Made by a program: the position numbers and the translations under genes. This document shows, piece by piece, positions 2,920 to 32,000 of a DNA stretch of 32,000 bases. The stretch comes from Geotalea uraniireducens Rf4 (GTDB lineage Bacteria; Desulfobacterota; Desulfuromonadia; Geobacterales; Geobacteraceae): assembly GCF_000016745.1 (NCBI RefSeq), contig NC_009483.1:3930001-3962000 (forward strand). The letters are read 5' to 3'. Positions within the stretch are counted from its first letter, which is position 1; every line of letters begins with the position of its first letter. The notes below the pieces were generated by a model, which searched no databases, was not told the origin of the DNA, and saw only the letters and a list, made by a program, of their open reading frames with translations.

Positions 2920-3621
2920 TTATGTCATACGGTTATGCTTGCCTTTCCCGTTTTGTGGATGCCGGAACAGTCCGCGTAACGAGTCCGGTGCATGCCGTTC
3001 AACCCAGACAGGCATGAGGAAAAAAAGCAGCACCATCACTATTCCGACAACGACCGCCAGCCTGCCGTTCACCACCAACGCAGCCCCAAAATTGTTGTAG
3101 ACGAACGTGAGCGGGAGCATACCGAAAAACGTCGCCAGACTGAACCGCGAGAGCGACATCTTCGTCATTCCTGCTCCGTAGCTCACCATGTCGAACGAAA
3201 CCACCGGTATGAGTCGGGTGAAGAATACGACGCCGGTCAGCATCCGATTCGAACAGGCGGTACAGAAATTGATGTGCCCACGCAGAAACCTCTCGATCAG
3301 GCTTCGTCCCAGCAGCCGGGCAATCGTGAAACTTATGATCGAGCCGCCGAGTGCTCCGACAGCAGAGTAAAGCGTCCCCAGATAAGGACCGAAAAAGATG
3401 CCGGCGGCGATGTCGAGCGGCAGACTCGGCAGCGGACTGGCAACCGTCAGAGCCATCACCGCCATAAAGCCGATCGGGGCAAAACTACCCATGCGCTTCA
3501 GCTGGTCAAGTATGGCTTTCTGGCTGAATTGGTCCTGAAAACCGGCCGACTTGGCAATGAAGAGAAAAAGCACTGCCAGGATTGCGATCGATAGAAATTT
3601 TAGAGCTTGCCGTGTCCGCAC
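2920..3621 (-). CDS. TVP38/TMEM64 (DedA/SNARE-associated) family membrane protein
   Basis: 233 aa with multiple TM helices. It has the family-type segment GGSIISFTIARLLGR...LIPVVSFDMVSYGAGMT. GTG start. Confidence 0.75.
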   Translation of the reverse strand: MRTRQALKFLSIAILAVLFLFIAKSAGFQDQFSQKAILDQLKRMGSFAPIGFMAVMALTVASPLPSLPLDIAAGIFFGPYLGTLYSAVGALGGSIISFTIARLLGRSLIERFLRGHINFCTACSNRMLTGVVFFTRLIPVVSFDMVSYGAGMTKMSLSRFSLATFFGMLPLTFVYNNFGAALVVNGRLAVVVGIVMVLLFFLMPVWVERHAPDSLRGLFRHPQNGKGKHNRMT

Positions 3622-7516: not shown

Positions 7517-8707
7517 CTACCCGATCGACATCTCCTCAGCCAGGGCCCGCCAGGCGGGAAGGCTCCTCTCGATCATCGCCTCGTCCACGCAGTAGGCGAT
7601 GCGGAAAAAGCCCGGAGCGCCGAAGCCTGCGCCGGGAACGAGGAGGATGTTGTGCTTCTGCGCGGTCCTGACGAACTCCACGTCATCGGCGAGCGGCGAC
7701 TGGGGAAACAGGTAGAAGGCCCCGTCAGGCTTCACCATGCGGAAGCCCATTGCCGTCAGGTTGTCGTAGAGGAGATCGCGCTTTTTCTGATAAGCGCCGA
7801 TGTCCACCGAAGAGCGTTGCAGTTTCGCCACCATGCGCTGCATCAGCGCAGGCGCATTGACGAAACCCAAAGTCCGGTTGCAGAAAACAGCCCCTTCCAT
7901 GAACAGCTCCACATGGGTCATGCGGGGGTTGGCGGCCAGATAGCCGATCCGCTCGCCGGGCAGCGCCAGGTCCTTGGAATGGGAGGTGACGATGACCGAA
8001 TTGTCCACAAAGGTAAAAATGTTCGGCACATGCCTGCCGTCATAGGCGATGCGGGCGTAGGGCTCATCGGAAATGACGAAGATCTGCCGCTCCAGTTCCC
8101 GTTCCTTCCGCTGCACCAGGTCGCCGAGCTTCTTCAGGCTATCGGCATGGTAAATCACGCCGGTCGGGTTGTGGGGGGTGTTGATGATAATCGCCCTGGT
8201 CTTGTCGTTGATGGCTGCCTCGATGGCCGCAAGGTCCAGCTGGAAGGTGTTCCGGTCGGTCCAGACATCGCGGGGGACGCCGCCATGGTTGTCGATGTAG
8301 AATTTGTATTCGACGAAATGGGGGGTAAGAATGATTACCTCTTCACCCGGATTGAGGATGGCCTTGAGGACCACATTGAGTGCGCCGCTGGCACCGCAGG
8401 TCATGACCACTTCGGCAGCGGTCACCGGCTGTCCCGATGCCTCGGCGATCACTTCCGCCACTGCGCTCCGCGTTTCTTCGTAACCAGCGTTACTCATGTA
8501 GCGGTGCATGCCGGGCAATGGTCTCTCGGCCAGGCTGCGCAATTCATCGTAAAACTCCTGCGGCGGCTCGATGTCGGGATTGCCGATGGTGAAGTCGAAG
8601 ACCTTGTCTGCGCCATGGATCTTCCTCAGCCGCTCCCCCTCTTCGAACATCTTCCGAATCCATGAAGCGCCTTCGATATACCCTTGTATCTTGGTTGCGA
8701 TGGCCAT
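7517..8707 (-). CDS. pyridoxal-phosphate-dependent aminotransferase, class I (AspC-like)
   Basis: 396 aa. It has NPTG, the SHSKDLALPGERIGY PLP-lysine motif and FRIAY near the C-terminus. RBS GAGAGGAG. Confidence 0.9.
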   Translation of the reverse strand: MAIATKIQGYIEGASWIRKMFEEGERLRKIHGADKVFDFTIGNPDIEPPQEFYDELRSLAERPLPGMHRYMSNAGYEETRSAVAEVIAEASGQPVTAAEVVMTCGASGALNVVLKAILNPGEEVIILTPHFVEYKFYIDNHGGVPRDVWTDRNTFQLDLAAIEAAINDKTRAIIINTPHNPTGVIYHADSLKKLGDLVQRKERELERQIFVISDEPYARIAYDGRHVPNIFTFVDNSVIVTSHSKDLALPGERIGYLAANPRMTHVELFMEGAVFCNRTLGFVNAPALMQRMVAKLQRSSVDIGAYQKKRDLLYDNLTAMGFRMVKPDGAFYLFPQSPLADDVEFVRTAQKHNILLVPGAGFGAPGFFRIAYCVDEAMIERSLPAWRALAEEMSIG

Positions 8708-21741: not shown

Positions 21742-22560
21742 CTAGGGGAAGTTGATATCGAGCTGGGTAGTAAAGGTGTTGTTGCCCGCCAGCGCTTTTT
21801 CCTTGTATATGTCATAGCCGAAGATTACCGAGACATTCTTGGCAAAGGCCCAGGATACACCGACGTTCACGGCGCCCATGACGTTGTTGCCGCCCATGTA
21901 ATCCACCGCCATCCAGAGTTTGTCGGAAATCTCGCTCATGGTCCTGTCCCAGGAGAGAAGGACACCTTGATTCTGCGACTTGCTCGGATCCAGGCGTGTA
22001 TCCTGGAAAGAATTTTTGGAACCGCGATAGTAACCAGCAGAAACCCTCCCCAGCGAAGGAACAGGGCCGATTGCAGGAATGGTCTTGGCCGCCAGGCCAT
22101 AGATTATGTTCTGCCCCGAGACCACGAAAGGTGCGTTGCCTGCCGGCTGGGTCGGACCAATGTTGTACATGCCGAAGGCAAGGGCCGGAGATAATTTGAA
22201 AAGGGATTCTTCGGGAGTGCCGATTTTGAAATTGCCCATCAGCGGGTGGTTGTCGTTCGGGTTATTGGCGATGACCAGATAGTCAACACCAATTTCCATC
22301 TGCAACTTCTCGAAGGGAAGGATACCCGCGGTGAGGCCGATGTCCATTACGTTTGCGTCCCTGGTGGAAGACGGGGAGGGAGCTGACTTGGCTACTCCGG
22401 AAGCACGGAAATAGTTGTCGATGCCGAGATGCAGAGTCTTGTAACCCTGGACGTCCGTGGAAGGGATCCAGATCTGGGTGGAAGGGGTCGCCATTGCGAC
22501 ACCGGTTGCTGCCATCATAAGCATCGTTGCCAGGGAAAGAATCTTGGTAATCTTTTTCAT
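21742..22560 (-). CDS. outer-membrane beta-barrel (porin-like) protein co-oriented with glnK-amtB
   Basis: Signal peptide MKKITKILSLATMLMMAATGVAMA and alternating beta-strand pattern, ending TTQLDINFP. The start at 22560 lies 7 nt after AGGAG. Confidence 0.6.
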   Translation of the reverse strand: MKKITKILSLATMLMMAATGVAMATPSTQIWIPSTDVQGYKTLHLGIDNYFRASGVAKSAPSPSSTRDANVMDIGLTAGILPFEKLQMEIGVDYLVIANNPNDNHPLMGNFKIGTPEESLFKLSPALAFGMYNIGPTQPAGNAPFVVSGQNIIYGLAAKTIPAIGPVPSLGRVSAGYYRGSKNSFQDTRLDPSKSQNQGVLLSWDRTMSEISDKLWMAVDYMGGNNVMGAVNVGVSWAFAKNVSVIFGYDIYKEKALAGNNTFTTQLDINFP

Positions 22561-22657
22561 TTGCATACTCCTTTGTAATTAAATATAAAATTATTTAACC
22601 TACTGTACCACGTCGTAAACCACTTGCAGCTCCATTGCCCCCTTTCCATGTTCTAAA

Positions 22658-22900
22658 TAGTGTCCATCCGGAAACTCCGGATGAGAAACTATTGGTTTCC
22701 AATTCGGAAACGAGGGATTTTTGACTCGACCATACGGTCGACCCCTTTGGGGCGCCTTCGCGGTCCAACTCGCTTCGCTCGTTGTCGTCCTGGCAAGGAA
22801 ATCGAGGGGTTGCGCGGAGGCGTACATCGGTACGCCGCACAAGCAAGCCTGAAGATTGACACCGCCAGGGCGGAAAAGAACCGTTTCCGGATGGAAACTA
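22658..22900. mobile_element. MITE-like element (243 bp) inside the 5' leader of the porin-glnK-amtB operon
   Basis: The TIRs are TAGTGTCCATCCGGAAAC (22658-22675) and GTTTCCGGATGGAAACTA (22883-22900), matching 17/18. The interior is full of short hairpins and has no credible ORF. Confidence 0.6.
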
Positions 22901-22977
22901 AATAAAAAAGCGCCTCCCACCATGCGGTGAAGAGGCGCCATTGCCTGTACCATCTGTTCAAATGCACAACACTGTGC
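22901..22977 (-). promoter_or_regulatory. leader with ANTAR-type dual hexaloop hairpins overlapping an intrinsic terminator
   Basis: On the reverse strand, hairpin 1 is GCAC-AGTGTT-GTGC (22977-22964) and hairpin 2 is AGGC-AATGGC-GCCT (22946-22933). Both hexaloops have A at position 1 and G at position 4. The 3' arm of hairpin 2 lies within the 5' arm of the terminator GCGCCTCttCACCgcatGGTGgGAGGCGC + TTTTTTATTT (22938-22901). Confidence 0.55.
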
Positions 22978-23002
22978 GTCGATAATTTACGAAAATGCTA
23001 AA

Positions 23003-23018
23003 AGCACAAGCCGTGCCA
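23003..23018 (-). promoter_or_regulatory. sigma-54 promoter for the porin-glnK-amtB leader
   Basis: The reverse strand reads TGGCACGGCTTGTGCT with GG/GC at consensus spacing. It is about 15 nt upstream of the first ANTAR-type hairpin once the expected start site is allowed for. Confidence 0.55.
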
Positions 23019-23085
23019 CATGTATTTGCAAAATGAATTGTCAAATAATTACGAATTGTTACAAAAAAGTCAGAAAATCATGACA

Positions 23086-23123: not shown

Positions 23124-23169
23124 CTGATTATTTTTTATGCAGCTCTGCGTTTCATTTCCAGGCAGCTTT

Positions 23170-24503: not shown

Positions 24504-24646
24504 GTACCTGAAAGCCGTTAAACACAGGATACCGACGTGGAAGAGAGGAACTTGTGCCTCTTTTTTACACAAACATGATCTACTTTGTGGAATTGTACGC
24601 CGAACTAAAGCTGGACCGGACAGTTACGGTATGATATGAATTGGCC

Positions 24647-25807
24647 ATGCTCAAAAGAATCAACCTTCTGCGCGAATTCTCGATCCCCCTCCTTGCCGGG
24701 GTGCTGACCGCCCTGGTCTGGGCCAATGTTGCGCCGGACAGCTATCACAAGTTCAACCACGACCACTTCCTGGGGCCGCTCAGTTTTCACTTCGTCACCA
24801 ACGACATCTTCATGGCCTTCTTCTTCGCCATCGCCGCGGTCGAGATAACCCAGAGCTGCCTCCCCGGCGGAGACATGAGTCCCCTCAACAAAGCGCTAAA
24901 TCCGCTCCTGGCGACAGCCGGCGGGGTAGTCGGGCCTGTCGGGGTCTATCTGGCGCTGAACAGCCTGGTCGGCTCTTCGGCCTTCACCAACGGCTGGGGT
25001 ATCCCCACCGCCACCGACATCGCCTTCGCCTGGCTGGCGGCGCGCCTCATTTTCGGCAAAAATCATCCGGTCATCGCCTTCCTGCTCCTCCTGGCCATTG
25101 CCGACGATGCCATCGGGCTGGTGATCATCGCCGTCTTTTATCCCGACCCGGTCCTCCCCGTGGCGCCACCCTGGCTCATGCTCACCGCCGCCGGAATGCT
25201 GATCGCCTTTATCCTGCGCAGGAAGCAGGTGAAAAGCTACTGGCCGTACCTCCTCTTCGGCGGCGTCCCAAGCTGGTTCGGACTCTTCAAAGCGCACCTC
25301 CACCCGGCCCTGGCACTGGTCTTCATCATACCGTTCCTGCCTCACCCCACCAGGGAGGTAAAACACATGTTCGAAGAGGACCCGAAGGATTACTCTCCCC
25401 TGGCCCGGTTCGAACACGAATGGAAGATCATCGTCGACTTCGGCCTTTTCATGTTCGGCCTCGCCAATGCGGGGGTCGGATTTTCCGCCATGAATACGGT
25501 CACCTGGCTGGTTTTCTGCGCACTTTTGTTCGGCAAAGTGACCGGCATATTTGTCTTTGCGCTCCTCGGAGAGAAGCTCGGCTTTCCCCTTCCCCAGGGG
25601 ATGGGAAGAAGGCATCTACTGGTTGCCGGCATAATCGCCGGAATCGGTTTCACGGTGGCCCTGTTCGTCGCGGGAGAAGCTTTTACCGACCCAGTCGTGC
25701 AGGGTGCGGCAAAGATGGGGGCGATCTTAAGCATCGCCGTCTTCCCGGTCGCCATGGCGGCAGCTAAGTTGCTGGGCATCAGGAAAAGGGGGCATTCATC
25801 TTCATAA
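24647..25807 (+). CDS. nhaA: Na+/H+ antiporter NhaA
   Basis: Motifs GIPTATDIAFAWL and LLLLAIADDAIGLVIIAVFY (the NhaA Asp-Asp region), with about 12 TM segments. The start is ATG 24647 (a TTG at 24641 is also possible). Confidence 0.9.
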   Translation: MLKRINLLREFSIPLLAGVLTALVWANVAPDSYHKFNHDHFLGPLSFHFVTNDIFMAFFFAIAAVEITQSCLPGGDMSPLNKALNPLLATAGGVVGPVGVYLALNSLVGSSAFTNGWGIPTATDIAFAWLAARLIFGKNHPVIAFLLLLAIADDAIGLVIIAVFYPDPVLPVAPPWLMLTAAGMLIAFILRRKQVKSYWPYLLFGGVPSWFGLFKAHLHPALALVFIIPFLPHPTREVKHMFEEDPKDYSPLARFEHEWKIIVDFGLFMFGLANAGVGFSAMNTVTWLVFCALLFGKVTGIFVFALLGEKLGFPLPQGMGRRHLLVAGIIAGIGFTVALFVAGEAFTDPVVQGAAKMGAILSIAVFPVAMAAAKLLGIRKRGHSSS

Positions 25808-27496: not shown

Positions 27497-28342
27497 TCAT
27501 TTCCCCCGCTCGAACCCTTCCCGCGTTGCCAACAGATCGAGATGCATCGTTGCCAGGTCCTCGGCATCGAGGGGTACGCCGGCGTGCCCCTTGCGTGAGT
27601 CCCGCGTCTTGATGTAGCGGCTGCAGCTGCGGCAGACGTCCACCCGGACCGGCCCGTCCCCCGCCTCGAAGTAGGAGAGCTTCTCCGCCTCCTCGCTGCC
27701 GCAGTAGGGGCACTTGATCCGGGTGAAGGGCCAGCTGAACGAGCAGGACGAACATGAGAGGAAACGCCTCCCGTCCTCCCCGGCCAGCTCCGCCATGCCT
27801 GGCCGGGAGCCGCAGACCGGGCAGAACCCCTCCTTCCACCCCTCCACCAGCGCAGGCTCCACCGATTCGGCAAACTCCTCCAGGGCCGTCCTGAGGGCCG
27901 TCTCCAGGACGAACTCCAGGAGCGGGGGAGAGACACAGCAGACGGCAGACGCCTCCACGATCGCCTCCCGCTCCCGCGCCAGACATCCCCGGAAAAGCCG
28001 GGGAAGGTCGAGCCCTCCCCCGTGGAGCGCCTGCCGGAGAAGAGAAAGCTCACCCTTTCCATCCCTCCCCACCCTCGTCATCACCTCGATGACGCTGTCG
28101 AGAAAGTGGGTGGCTCTGGCAGGGTCCACCGTCATCGCTTCCGGGGCGAGGAGCGGGAATCCGAACCGCATCCGCTCTTCTGCGGTGAGGTGGGAGGTGC
28201 GGGAGAACGATATCCCCGTCTCCCCCTCCCGCCCTGCGACCGTGACATAGAGCTCGCGGAAGAGGGTGAGGAGGTCGGCATACTCCGGTGTCTCTCGGCA
28301 AACGTCGTCGAGAAAGGCCTTTTTCTCAGCAATTTTTGTCAT
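27497..28342 (-). CDS. fdhE: formate dehydrogenase accessory protein FdhE
   Basis: Four CxxC pairs: CPVCGS, CSSCS, CPYCGS and CRSCSRY. ATG 28342 overlaps the fdnI stop (TAATG). Confidence 0.85.
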   Translation of the reverse strand: MTKIAEKKAFLDDVCRETPEYADLLTLFRELYVTVAGREGETGISFSRTSHLTAEERMRFGFPLLAPEAMTVDPARATHFLDSVIEVMTRVGRDGKGELSLLRQALHGGGLDLPRLFRGCLAREREAIVEASAVCCVSPPLLEFVLETALRTALEEFAESVEPALVEGWKEGFCPVCGSRPGMAELAGEDGRRFLSCSSCSFSWPFTRIKCPYCGSEEAEKLSYFEAGDGPVRVDVCRSCSRYIKTRDSRKGHAGVPLDAEDLATMHLDLLATREGFERGK

Positions 28343-28974
28343 TAATGGACCTCTTTTCGGAAATTCATGGATTTGACGTCCTTGTACCACTTCGGATGAT
28401 GCTTCCTTGCCCAGGGCCTGGTCACCCTCCCCCAGAGCATGGCCTCGATGGTGCCGGGATTGCCGATGGTCGCCAGGTAGACGTGGACGATGACGAACAT
28501 GACCGACAGGACGAAAAAGAGGCCGTGGACCAGGAGAGAGAGCTGGACGAGCCAGCGGGGGAAGGAGGCGGGTGCCCAGATGAAGATCCCCGTGACGCCG
28601 AGGAGCAGGGTCGCGGCGCCGATGAAGAGCGCGAAGAGCTTCTGGCCGGGATTGTACTTGCCGATATTGAAGTGGGTCGCCTCCCTGGAGAGGTAGCCGC
28701 CGCGCTGTTCTATCCAGCGCCGGTCGTCCGCGTCGAAAGTGGCGACCTCCTTTCTATGGGAGAGGTACATGTAGAGGGAGCTCAGGAAGAAGACGACCCC
28801 GGCGATCTTGTGGACCGCGATGGCGTTTCGCCCCCCGCCGAACAGGGTGAAATAACCGTTGAAGAGCCGAGAATACAGGCCGAGCCCGGAGAGGAGGAGG
28901 GTGAAGAAGCTCCCGGTCACGATCCAGTGCAGGACCCGCTCCTGTGCGCTGAAGCGCTCGATGTAGTTACTCAT
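28342..28974 (-). CDS. fdnI: formate dehydrogenase gamma subunit (cytochrome b, FdnI-like)
   Basis: 210 aa with 4 TM segments. It has the RFSAQERVLHW N-terminus and conserved haem-ligand His residues. It overlaps the fdnH end. Confidence 0.85.
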   Translation of the reverse strand: MSNYIERFSAQERVLHWIVTGSFFTLLLSGLGLYSRLFNGYFTLFGGGRNAIAVHKIAGVVFFLSSLYMYLSHRKEVATFDADDRRWIEQRGGYLSREATHFNIGKYNPGQKLFALFIGAATLLLGVTGIFIWAPASFPRWLVQLSLLVHGLFFVLSVMFVIVHVYLATIGNPGTIEAMLWGRVTRPWARKHHPKWYKDVKSMNFRKEVH

Positions 28975-29743
28975 GGCTCTCCTCCTTGTTGTTGGTTTCG
29001 TCGTCGAGCTTCTTCGGCCCGATGGTCACGTAGTGGAGCAGCATGGCGCCGACGCTCCCCCAGAAACCGAGGATGCCGAGCGGCTTTATCACGTCCTTCC
29101 AGAGGAAGATGGAGACGGGGATGGAAGGCTTCGCGGGGAGGCCGTACTCCTCCGGCTTCCCCTCCAGCGCATAGACCACGCCGAGCCCCATCAGGTCGCT
29201 CTCCCCGTAGATGCTCTTCTTTGCTGCCTTGGCCCTGGCGACCAGCTCGGCCCGGTTGCCGAACTGGATGGACTGGGTGGGACAGGCCTTGGCGCAGGCG
29301 GGGGGCATGCCGCCGGCCACCCGGTCCCCGCAGAGGTTGCACTTGGAGACCTTGTCGTCTGTCCCGTAGCGTGGGATGTTGAAGGGGCAGGCGGATACAC
29401 AGTACTTGCATGAAATGCACTTCTCCCTGTTGAAGGCTACGATCCCCTCCTTTGTCCGGTAGAGGGCGCCCGGCGACGGGCAAACCTTCATGCAGCCGGC
29501 GTCGCCGCAGTGCATGCAGCGCTCGTTCATGAAGAGCCATTTCACGCTGCCGCTATCCGCCTGCTCCACGAACCTGATCCGGTTGTAGAGGTTGGGGGTC
29601 AGGTCCCGGGGGTTCTCGAAGCTCCCCTGGTTGGCGGTCTTGTCCGCCTCCAGCTTGTTCCACTGCTTGCAGGCCACCTGACAGGAGCGGCAGCCGATGC
29701 AGCGGGTCGTGTCGATCAGAAATCCCTTTCTCGTCTCAGCCAT
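28967..29743 (-). CDS. fdnH: formate dehydrogenase beta subunit (4x[4Fe-4S], FdnH-like) with C-terminal TM anchor
   Basis: CIGCRSCQVACKQWN, CMHCGDAGCMKVCP, CISCKYCVSACP and CNLCGDR clusters. Confidence 0.9.
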   Translation of the reverse strand: MAETRKGFLIDTTRCIGCRSCQVACKQWNKLEADKTANQGSFENPRDLTPNLYNRIRFVEQADSGSVKWLFMNERCMHCGDAGCMKVCPSPGALYRTKEGIVAFNREKCISCKYCVSACPFNIPRYGTDDKVSKCNLCGDRVAGGMPPACAKACPTQSIQFGNRAELVARAKAAKKSIYGESDLMGLGVVYALEGKPEEYGLPAKPSIPVSIFLWKDVIKPLGILGFWGSVGAMLLHYVTIGPKKLDDETNNKEESHE

Positions 29744-29749
29744 CTCCCG

Positions 29750-32000
29750 TCACCCCTTTCTCTTGATCCCGACCATAAACGCCTTGGTTTCGGGAATCAT
29801 GGTATTTGCATCGCCGGCAGTCGGCGTCAGCAGGTTTGCCGCATCCCCCACCCCCGGCGTGAACCAGCCGAAGCACCAGGGAAGTCCGACCTCGTGCACG
29901 GTCCGGCCGCCGATCTGGAACGGCCGCATGCGCGGGGTGACGACGGCGACAGCCTCAATCGCGCCCCTGACCGAGGCCACCTCTACGATATCGCCGTTTC
30001 TGATCCCCTTTTCTTTCGCCAGCTCGACGCTCATCTCGACGAACTGGCGCGGCTGCAACTCCAGCAGCCACGGGGTATTGCGGGTCATGACCCCGGTCTG
30101 CCAGTGCTCGGTCACCCGGTAGGTGGTCCCCACGTAAGGGAAGCGGACGTCGCAGGTGGCATAGGCATCCTCGGCAAGCCCCGCGTTGGCGAAGAGCTTG
30201 ATGGCCGGGTTGACCGTCTGCTTCGACATGAGGTTTTCCGGCACCGGGCATTCGAGGGGCTCGTAATGCTCTGGGAACGGCCCGTCCTTCATGCCGGGGC
30301 CGAACAGGGCGCCCACCCCGTCAGGCCGCATGATGAAAGGCTTTCTCCCCTCCTTGGCATCTGCCATGGGAGGCCAGGGGCCGTCGGGGACATCCCCCTC
30401 CCACTTGCCCACCTTTCCGTCGGGGAGGACGGCCGTCGGGTTCCAGTAGACGACCGCCTTCTTCATGTTGTAGGGCTTGCCGTCCGGGTTGACCGAGGCC
30501 CGGTTGTAGATGATGCGCCGGTTCACCGGCCAGGCCCACGCCCATTCGGGGAAGAGGCCGAGGCCGGTCGGGTCCTTCTTTGCCCGCCGCGCCATGAGGT
30601 TCCCCTTCTCGTTGTAGCTCTGGCAGTAGATCCAGTTGCCGCACGAGGTGGTGCCGTCGGCCTGGAGCTTGGCGAAGCCGTCGATGAGCTCCCCCTTCTT
30701 CCCCAGGGGCTTCTTCTCCCAGGGCTTGGGTATCACCTTAGGTGGCGGTGGATTCTCACCAGGTTTCAGAGGCTTCGGCTTCTCCTCCACCTCCTCCAGG
30801 AAGGAGCCGTTGATCTCCTTCGCCACCGCATGGATGTCGACGCTCCTGATGGTGCCGTCGGCCCGTTTGAAACCGTAGTTCCAGGTGAGGTTGGTGAGTT
30901 GCTCGGGGAGCGCCCCCCCATCTTTGGCATAGAGTCCCTTCAGCCTGAAGAAGAGCTCGTTGATGATCTCCGCGTCCGGCTTCGACTGCCCCAGGGGCTT
31001 CACCGCCGCGTAGCGCCACTGGGCCCAGCGGCCGGAGTTGGAGATGCTCCCCTCCTTCTCGAAGGAGGCGGCCGCAGGGAGGAAGAAGACCTCGGTCGGC
31101 ACCTTGGAGGGCTCCATGCCCGGTCCTTTCCAGAAGGAGGCGGTCTCGTTGTCGAAGAGGTTGACCGTCACCATCCAGTCGAGCTTGGCGAGGGCCTTCC
31201 TCACCTTGTTGGCATTGCTCCCGGAACAGGCCGGGTTCTGCCCCCAGGCGAAGAACCCCTTGAACTTGCCGCGGATCATGTTGTCGAAGATCATGAGCCA
31301 GGAGCCGTTCATCCCCGGGTCGAGCTTGGGGAGCCACTGGTAGCCGAAGTCGTTCTCCTTCGTCGCCTTTGCCCCGTAGATCGCCTTCAGGTAGCTCGCG
31401 ATGTACTTGGGGCGGTTCTGCCACCAGTTGGCGCTCTGGGGGTCCTTCGTCTTCGGGGTGTGCTTCTCGTTGTAGGCGGAGAGGTCCTTGAGGTCGGCCG
31501 AAGGGACCGGGAGATAGCCGGGGAGAATATGGAAGAGGAGCCCGTGGTCCGTGGAGCCCTGGACGTTGGATTCCCCGCGCAGGGCGTTGATGCCGCCACC
31601 CGCCACCCCCATGTTGCCCAGAAGGAGCTGGATGATGGACATGGCGCGGATGTTCTGGGTGCCGACCGTGTGCTGGGTCCACCCCATGGCGTAGAGGGAC
31701 GTCCCCGCCCGGTCCGGCGCGCCGGTGGAGGCGTAGGCCTTGTATACCTCCAGGAGCTTATCCTTGGGGGTGCCGGTGATCTGCGACACCTTGTCGGGGG
31801 TGTAACGTGCGTAGTGCCGCCGCAGGAGCTGGAAGACGCAGTTCGGGTCCTTGAGGGCCGGGTCCCGCAGCACGTTGTCGTCCCCGTCCTTCTGGAATCC
31901 CCACGCCTTCGGGTCGTAGCTCCGCTTCTTCGGGTCGTAGCCGGAGAAGAGGCCGGCAAGCTCCCCCGGCAGCTTGAATTCCGGGTTCACCAGGAAGGAG
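29750..32000 (-). CDS. fdnG: formate dehydrogenase alpha subunit (molybdopterin, FdnG-like), C-terminal ~750 aa; N-terminus lies beyond the right window edge
   Basis: The frame stays open through position 32000. The sequence shows molybdopterin oxidoreductase and dinucleotide-binding domain signatures (MGWTQHTVGTQNIRA, NALRGESNVQGSTD, RVTEHWQTG). The Sec/Cys codon and Tat signal would be outside the window. Confidence 0.9.
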   Translation of the reverse strand, partial: SFLVNPEFKLPGELAGLFSGYDPKKRSYDPKAWGFQKDGDDNVLRDPALKDPNCVFQLLRRHYARYTPDKVSQITGTPKDKLLEVYKAYASTGAPDRAGTSLYAMGWTQHTVGTQNIRAMSIIQLLLGNMGVAGGGINALRGESNVQGSTDHGLLFHILPGYLPVPSADLKDLSAYNEKHTPKTKDPQSANWWQNRPKYIASYLKAIYGAKATKENDFGYQWLPKLDPGMNGSWLMIFDNMIRGKFKGFFAWGQNPACSGSNANKVRKALAKLDWMVTVNLFDNETASFWKGPGMEPSKVPTEVFFLPAAASFEKEGSISNSGRWAQWRYAAVKPLGQSKPDAEIINELFFRLKGLYAKDGGALPEQLTNLTWNYGFKRADGTIRSVDIHAVAKEINGSFLEEVEEKPKPLKPGENPPPPKVIPKPWEKKPLGKKGELIDGFAKLQADGTTSCGNWIYCQSYNEKGNLMARRAKKDPTGLGLFPEWAWAWPVNRRIIYNRASVNPDGKPYNMKKAVVYWNPTAVLPDGKVGKWEGDVPDGPWPPMADAKEGRKPFIMRPDGVGALFGPGMKDGPFPEHYEPLECPVPENLMSKQTVNPAIKLFANAGLAEDAYATCDVRFPYVGTTYRVTEHWQTGVMTRNTPWLLELQPRQFVEMSVELAKEKGIRNGDIVEVASVRGAIEAVAVVTPRMRPFQIGGRTVHEVGLPWCFGWFTPGVGDAANLLTPTAGDANTMIPETKAFMVGIKRKG

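Follow-up and report, generated by a model that had tools for sequence, protein, structure and literature searches.

A conserved sigma-54 leader with a probable GnfR-type antitermination switch upstream of the porin-like gene, glnK and amtB in Geotalea uraniireducens Rf4

What decides whether RNA polymerase that has started at the promoter of the ammonium-uptake operon of Geotalea uraniireducens Rf4 also reaches the genes? The operon (a porin-like gene, glnK and amtB) lies on the minus strand of the 32,000-nucleotide (nt) stretch analyzed here (contig NC_009483.1, 3,930,001 to 3,962,000; hereafter the window, numbered from its first letter), and a first-pass annotation had placed a switch for an ANTAR-domain regulator between promoter and genes. 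Our results make us highly confident that this leader is the Geobacteraceae orthologue of the published antitermination leader of GSU0938-glnK-amtB, the target of the REC-ANTAR protein GnfR. The leader consists of the following parts:

23018 to 23003, minus strand: sigma-54 (RpoN) -24/-12 promoter TGGCACGGCTTGTGCT, recognized by its sequence
22977 to 22964, minus strand: hairpin P1, GCAC-AGUGUU-GUGC, starting 26 nt after the promoter element
22946 to 22933, minus strand: hairpin P2, AGGC-AAUGGC-GCCU, within the match to CAGGCAANGGCGCC at 22947 to 22934
22939 to 22910, minus strand: intrinsic terminator stem-loop GGCGCCUCUUCACC-GCAU-GGUGGGAGGCGC
22909 to 22900, minus strand: U-tract UUUUUUAUUU of the terminator

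The -24/-12 element claimed for the minus strand was found with GG at 23017/16 and GC at 23005/04 (GG-N10-GC), and it differs from TGGCAC-N5-TTGCW by one mismatch. Two sites in the window come this close, TGGCACGGCTTGTGCT and one before nifV. By sequence alone, the leader has the RpoN promoter that characterizes the Geobacter leaders under GnfL/GnfM and GnfK/GnfR, and transcription is predicted to start near 22992, about 12 nt past the GC of the promoter.

Downstream of the promoter, two small hairpins follow closely, as annotated, both with 4-base-pair (bp) stems and both with A at position 1 and G at position 4 (A1 and G4) of the hexaloop, and they are separated by a linker of 17-18 nt. Three features by which dual-hairpin ANTAR targets are recognized, i.e. 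two stem-loops of at least 3 bp with hexanucleotide loops, A1 and G4 in both loops, and a 3' arm of P2 that overlaps the 5' arm of a terminator, are all present. Specifically, the terminator 5' arm includes the last three loop bases and the entire 3' arm of P2, and because of this reuse P2 and the terminator are mutually exclusive, as had been proposed. RNAfold gave -20 to -22 kcal/mol for the terminator, -5.3 for P1 and -5.0 for P2, and the minimum-energy fold of the leader was P1 together with the strong terminator (z = -3.0; none of 200 shuffles was as stable). P1 appears in this fold as a 5-bp stem with a GUGU tetraloop, because positions 1 and 6 of the loop (A and U) can pair. Since P2 is far weaker than the terminator, termination is expected to be the default state and formation of P2 to need outside help.

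Where such help could come from is suggested by work on Geobacter sulfurreducens. Ueki and Lovley 2010 (PMC2995071) described a subset of genes activated by GnfM and RpoN that have terminators in their leaders, including the 'Gsul_0938 homologue operon' (hypothetical protein, glnK, amtB), and a conserved GnfR site, CAGGCAANGGCGCC, that overlaps the leader terminator. In the case of nifH they showed that GnfR (REC-ANTAR, GSU2822) binds CAGGCAAGGGCGCC once the sensor-less kinase GnfK (GSU0941) has phosphorylated it, that transcription terminates prematurely in gnfK and gnfR mutants, and that the terminator is functional. The dual-hexaloop A1/G4 motif of ANTAR targets was defined by Ramesh et al. 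2012 (PMC3369931), whose search definition permits a 'variable linker', and their Table S2 gives a dual-hairpin target before 'Hypothetical protein; P-II; ammonium transporter' in three genomes, G. sulfurreducens (NC_002939.4:1008412-1008483), G. uraniireducens and Geobacter sp. (NC_011979.1). The G. sulfurreducens match falls between nifV (GSU0937, end 1008243) and GSU0938 (start 1008591), and the published Geobacter matches have a linker spacing similar to that in the window. The proposed link to GnfK/GnfR is supported here: the published 14-mer CAGGCAANGGCGCC has a single exact match in the window, the one at P2, it overlaps the hairpin and is followed by a T-rich termination signal as in the Geobacter GnfR leaders, and the operon itself is named in both studies.

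The comparison extends over the whole leader. As upstream of GSU0938-glnK(GSU0939)-amtB(GSU0940), nifV lies upstream and gnfK downstream, and an RpoN promoter is followed by P1 of the form GCAC-AANGNN-GUGC, P2 in CAGGCAANGGCGCC, the overlapping terminator with U-tract, a GAAAGGRGG block and the ribosome-binding site ACAAAGGAG. The G. sulfurreducens leader printed in the supplement of Leang et al. 2009 reads GCAC-AACGCU-GUGC, CAGGCAAAGGCGCC, terminator, GAAAGGAGG block and ribosome-binding site, the same order of blocks as in the window. Both leaders can be aligned collinearly; of the 155 aligned positions about 55% are identical, and within the functional blocks little or nothing differs. They differ in the P1 loop (AGUGUU here, AACGCU in G. 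sulfurreducens), in the linker (17-18 nt versus about 24) and in a 238-bp insertion resembling a miniature inverted-repeat transposable element (MITE), which in the window separates the U-tract from the remaining 5' untranslated region (UTR). The window also comes from another species, and its porin-like protein is at best about 75% identical to the proteins of named Geobacter isolates. The element is the orthologue of the published GnfR antitermination element, already known and well conserved.

How well it is conserved was analyzed in orthologous loci, which were collected with an alignment of the porin-like protein in a scan that covered each species by one genome. This gave 80 loci; the more distant ones include some from metagenome-assembled genomes (MAGs) labelled Bacteroidales, Verrucomicrobiota and Nitrospirota. 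The dual-hairpin architecture was found in about 41-42 of the 80, mostly Geobacteraceae. A sigma-54 element with GGCAANGGCGCC 63-99 nt later is present in 42 loci, where the promoter is identical or near-identical and stands at the same distance from P2. About 41 of the 80 loci contained a single match to the full covariance model, in every case before the porin-like gene, and these loci came from Geobacter, Geomonas, Citrifermentans, Geotalea, Geomobilimonas and some Desulfuromonadales MAGs. A leave-one-out model, made from 26 orthologous leaders with the window excluded, matched 22981 to 22930 with 47.7 bits (E about 1e-13). This match was unique in the window; the next-best one, with 14 bits, was the reverse complement of P1, and no further complete dual-hairpin site, for instance before nifV or gnfK, was detected in the window by the covariance model. 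The Rfam scan that the first-pass annotation had suggested as a check for ANTAR targets matched no family, neither in the whole window at gathering thresholds nor over 22560 to 23060 at E up to 10.

These data bear directly on the possibility that the terminator simply ends nifV transcription, with promoter- and hairpin-like sequences next to it by coincidence. Short hairpins and GG-N10-GC matches are common, and at two or fewer mismatches the sigma-54 pattern occurs at 20 sites in the window where 15 are expected. However, nifV has its own terminator upstream of the operon promoter, and the order and spacing of the modules are conserved in about 41 loci, including loci where the sequence just upstream of the promoter differs from the 3' end of nifV in the window. 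Together with the E value of the leave-one-out model, the conservation effectively refutes a chance arrangement, to which we assign next to no probability.

Conservation was also seen at the level of the individual hairpins. A P1 of the form GCAC-ANNGNN-GUGC occurs in 35 of 43 orthologous leaders, with 7-nt loops in a few, the linker to P2 varies from 13 to 32 nt, and a terminator that overlaps P2 is present in 41 of the 43, with highly divergent stem sequences. Lack of loop conservation in orthologous leaders had been named beforehand as a result that would speak against an ANTAR switch. The loops proved to be conserved across 34 aligned leaders, which had been selected with a search pattern that takes a P1-like hairpin for granted: the P1 loop has A1 in 31, A2 in 29 and G4 in all 34, whereas positions 3, 5 and 6 vary, and the P2 loop AANGGC is invariant or nearly so, with A1 and G4 in every leader. 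In a fixed-register alignment 81% of the cells were paired and compensatory changes were observed in 6 of 11 pairs (in P1, in 4 of 6 stem pairs). The covariation score was 0.103 as compared to 0.039 in shuffles (0 of 500 reached 0.103), and every slid control scored lower.

P1 could in principle act as DNA rather than RNA, as an operator with a GCAC-N6-GTGC palindrome at about +16 to +29 for a dimeric regulator, leaving P2 and the terminator as the only parts that work as RNA. Its four core pairs are nearly invariant, the rare changes (GCGC/GCGC and ACAC/GTGT) preserve DNA palindrome and RNA stem alike, and the covariance model scores P1 in reverse complement, too. The loop, on the other hand, is asymmetric: positions 1, 2 and 4 (A, A and G) are fixed whereas their palindromic partners 6, 5 and 3 are free, which favours an RNA signal over a DNA palindrome and fits a strand-specific signal with the same AANG signature as in P2. 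Furthermore, the outer fifth pair of P1 covaries freely (GC, UA, CG and UG), and a requirement for two hairpins has been established for ANTAR proteins (PMC3369931). We therefore consider a DNA operator very improbable, and an RNA hairpin that forms part of a GnfR target remains the preferred reading of P1.

Upstream of the promoter, three features were located between the nifV coding sequence and the -24 element:

23141 to 23125, minus strand: conserved activator-type site TGCATAAAAAATAATCA, an NtrC-like TGC-N11-[G/T]CA palindrome
about 23123 to 23090, minus strand: nifV terminator, upstream of the sigma-54 promoter of the operon
23061 to 23035, minus strand: AT-rich spacer with a direct repeat, TAACAATTC at 23061 to 23053 and TGACAATTC at 23043 to 23035

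Situated between the stop codon and the terminator of nifV, the site TGCATAAAAAATAATCA precedes the -24 element by about 123 nt. A TGC-N11-[GT]CA sequence at -100 to -140 is present in 29 of 43 orthologous leaders, where 0.03 would be expected per such interval, and TGCATAAAAAATAATCA is probably a GnfM site. The first-pass annotation had instead pointed to the direct repeat GAATTGTNA (23035-23043 and 23053-23061) as a candidate activator site. The repeat is there as described, but it was rejected in this role since the orthologous promoters contain no ACAATTC repeat, although the same interval is generally AT-rich. Possibly, the AT-rich spacer might contribute to DNA bending or to binding of IHF.

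Taken together, these elements suggest a path from nitrogen limitation to expression of the operon. An NtrC-type activator (GnfM in G. sulfurreducens) would bind at 23141 to 23125 and activate RNA polymerase carrying RpoN at 23018 to 23003. Transcription would begin near 22992, so that P1 emerges first and then P2. Unaided, P2 (about -5 kcal/mol) would lose to the terminator (about -21), and transcription would stop at the U-tract, giving a leader RNA of about 90 nt. If GnfR has been phosphorylated by the sensor-less GnfK, the ANTAR dimer would bind the A1/G4 hexaloops and keep P2 closed; with P2 held, the terminator would be blocked and the polymerase could read through into the porin-like gene, glnK and amtB. 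GnfK, which is encoded just downstream of the operon, would itself depend on sigma-54 and GnfM. By analogy with G. sulfurreducens, we infer both the action of these proteins on the G. uraniireducens leader and the identity of the activator.

The proposed switch resembles that of the eut leaders of Enterococcus faecalis, which are controlled by EutV/EutW (PMC3369931; PMC8934654, Walshe et al. 2022). These leaders also have two short hairpins with A1/G4 hexaloops, the 3' arm of their P2 is likewise shared with an intrinsic terminator, and, as in Geobacter GnfR/GnfK, a histidine kinase activates the effector, a REC-ANTAR response regulator. In contrast to eut, the operon here has a sigma-54 promoter with an enhancer-binding protein, making it a two-tier cascade, within the Geobacter family the stem sequences hardly vary, and the pathway is ammonium uptake rather than ethanolamine use. 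NasR/nasF of Klebsiella oxytoca and AmiR/amiE of Pseudomonas aeruginosa are ANTAR antiterminators as well, with an A1/G4 hexaloop before an intrinsic terminator, and they too control nitrogen-related genes. Unlike the system proposed here, NasR and AmiR use other sensor domains (NIT and the AmiC partner, respectively) and are not phosphorylated response regulators, and their target operons and leader sequences are different.

Several observations weigh against a GnfR-controlled leader. No gene for an ANTAR-domain protein was found among the approximately 34 open reading frames (ORFs) scanned in the 32-kb window, so the ANTAR partner has to be assumed; its absence is expected, since gnfR (GSU2822) is unlinked to gnfK (GSU0941) in G. 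sulfurreducens, where it is gnfK that adjoins amtB (GSU0940). GnfR binding and read-through dependent on gnfK and gnfR were shown for G. sulfurreducens nifH alone (PMC2995071). The linker of 17-18 nt (13-32 nt in the orthologues) exceeds the 5-12 nt of eut, where linkers of 3 or 14 nt impaired control by EutV (PMC3369931). With regard to covariation, the core stems GCAC/GUGC and GGC/GCC vary so little that most pairs are uninformative on structure, and the sequences used for the pair counts were picked by the P1-like hairpin pattern. Primer extension at GSU0938/0939 under non-nitrogen-fixing conditions gave an RpoD-type 5' end and not an RpoN start (PMC2725144), and because of this an additional promoter may exist. 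Finally, expression in this genome in particular could be changed by the 238-bp insertion that follows the U-tract.

Part of this would also fit a genuine attenuator that is controlled by something other than an ANTAR protein, whether another RNA-binding protein, a small molecule, or constitutive partial termination that sets the level of expression. The missing ANTAR gene in the window, a linker beyond the tolerance of EutV, and GnfR binding that is known from nifH RNA and not from the glnK-amtB leader would be in line with such control. Nevertheless, P2 agrees exactly with the sequence bound by phosphorylated GnfR in vitro, the ANTAR-specific A1/G4 loops are kept across the 34 aligned leaders, and the gene for the cognate kinase is adjacent. 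As to a small molecule, no riboswitch family was matched at E up to 10, and a leader of about 90 nt with two 4-bp hairpins is probably too simple to form a ligand pocket. We regard non-ANTAR control as improbable, and antitermination by GnfR as the preferred explanation. The two-tier nitrogen cascade of G. sulfurreducens, i.e. sigma-54/GnfM activation followed by GnfK/GnfR ANTAR antitermination, would then be conserved across the Geobacteraceae for the ammonium-uptake operon, down to loops and spacing, which adds little new knowledge. The value lies mainly in annotation: an alignment and model of 40-odd leaders, a conserved upstream site, and a probable beta-barrel channel co-regulated with GlnK and AmtB.

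Between the terminator and the first gene, two features were identified:

22897 to 22660, minus strand: MITE-like insertion of 238 bp, directly 3' of the U-tract, with imperfect terminal inverted repeats
22646 to 22638, minus strand: GAAAGGGGG block (GAAAGGRGG) of the 5' UTR, Shine-Dalgarno-like

The insertion is flanked by a 7-bp duplication, TATTTAG on the minus strand at 22904 to 22898 and at 22659 to 22653. It is missing from orthologous leaders, but further copies are found in related genomes (in our numbering, L001 at 8192-8375, L040 at 3427-3570 and 8149-8326, and L022 at 1848-1902). In the window the GAAAGG block is 287 nt away from P2 as compared to about 43 nt in orthologues, and the insertion extends the 5' UTR from about 150 to about 390 nt. 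When it is removed, the leader becomes collinear with those of G. sulfurreducens, L001 and L022; judged by this alignment, the insertion is no part of the ancestral leader. The GAAAGGRGG block, usually 10-25 nt past the terminator, recurs in about 30 of the orthologous leaders, and the leader published for G. sulfurreducens has it too. A small ORF after GAAAGGGGG (MELQVVYDVVQ in the window) was considered and rejected: no conserved ORF follows the block among the orthologous leaders, and the start codons are too near the Shine-Dalgarno-like sequence.

The genes of the operon and its surroundings are arranged as follows:

24321 to 23170, minus strand: nifV (TIGR02660, 544 bits), upstream of the leader
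22566 to 21742, minus strand: GSU0938-type hypothetical protein, porin-like, 274 amino acids, first gene of the operon
21648 to 21310, minus strand: glnK, P-II protein (PF00543, E = 1.9e-34)
21288 to 19819, minus strand: amtB, ammonium transporter (PF00909, E = 8.6e-129; TIGR00836, 462 bits, above cut-off)
19777 to 19751, minus strand: operon terminator after amtB
19745 to 19729 and 19723 to 19707, minus strand: two TGC-N11-GCA sites before the kinase gene, about -126 to -88 from its predicted start
19644/43 (GG) and 19632/31 (GC), minus strand: sigma-54 promoter TGGCATGACTTATGCC of the kinase gene
19579 to 18830, minus strand: gnfK-like histidine kinase of 249 amino acids with HisKA and HATPase_c domains alone and no sensor domain

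The annotated gene order porin-glnK-amtB was supported by the PF00543 and PF00909 matches and a beta-barrel model of the first product, and a GSU0938 homologue with glnK and amtB and an adjacent gnfK is the arrangement known from the Geobacter nitrogen regulon. The porin-like gene probably starts at its second ATG (22560). Its product has no Pfam or NCBIfam match but 3313 homologues, mostly in Geobacteraceae. The AlphaFold model (predicted local distance difference test score, pLDDT, 64) has a signal helix and about 12-13 strands, and in Foldseek it was similar to OmpF/OmpC, FapF and COG4313 channels (E about 1e-5 to 1e-6, template modelling score up to 0.5). The protein is probably an outer-membrane beta-barrel channel, moderately supported by these models, and it is called porin-like here for this reason. 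On G. sulfurreducens gnfK, GnfM has a published footprint that covers -131 to -91 and contains two sites (PMC2995071), and the sites upstream of the kinase gene match it.

The second sigma-54 site that is close to consensus belongs to nifV, and its leader has a different form:

24503 to 24488, minus strand: nifV sigma-54 element TGGCATGCCTATTGCT

In this leader (24487 to 24322), one A1/G4 hexaloop hairpin, GGC-AACGAG-GCC, overlaps a second, very long one (-63.6 kcal/mol, z = -5.45), after which comes the U-rich sequence UUUCUGUUGUUU. The dual-hairpin covariance model gave no match in the nifV leader, where a P2-like hairpin stands alone, and nifV is absent from the ANTAR/GnfR targets named for Geobacter in PMC2995071 and PMC3369931. 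In four orthologous nifV leaders (L014, L022, L036 and L045) a sigma-54 element and GGCAAYGRMGCC are combined with a compact terminator; in the window the terminator loop is enlarged by a palindromic insertion. The nifV leader may be an ANTAR-type attenuator with a single hexaloop, and a genuine target of this kind would fit the revised minimal ANTAR motif. Both loci can be viewed as natural variations, in which the MITE affects the ammonium-uptake operon at the level of read-through, RNA stability or basal expression and the nifV leader is a true single-hexaloop target; we consider this a speculative and rather unlikely proposal, and the two cases offer small leads on how much change an ANTAR attenuator tolerates.

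Beyond nifV, the window contains a divergent gene for an NhaA-type antiporter (24641 to 25807, plus strand), followed by a gene for an FdhD/NarQ-MobA fusion protein of 513 amino acids (27343 to 25802, minus strand). The latter adjoins a cluster of the formate-dehydrogenase-N type at 27497 to 31990, with genes for FdhE, cytochrome b, the 4Fe-4S subunit and the molybdopterin subunit.

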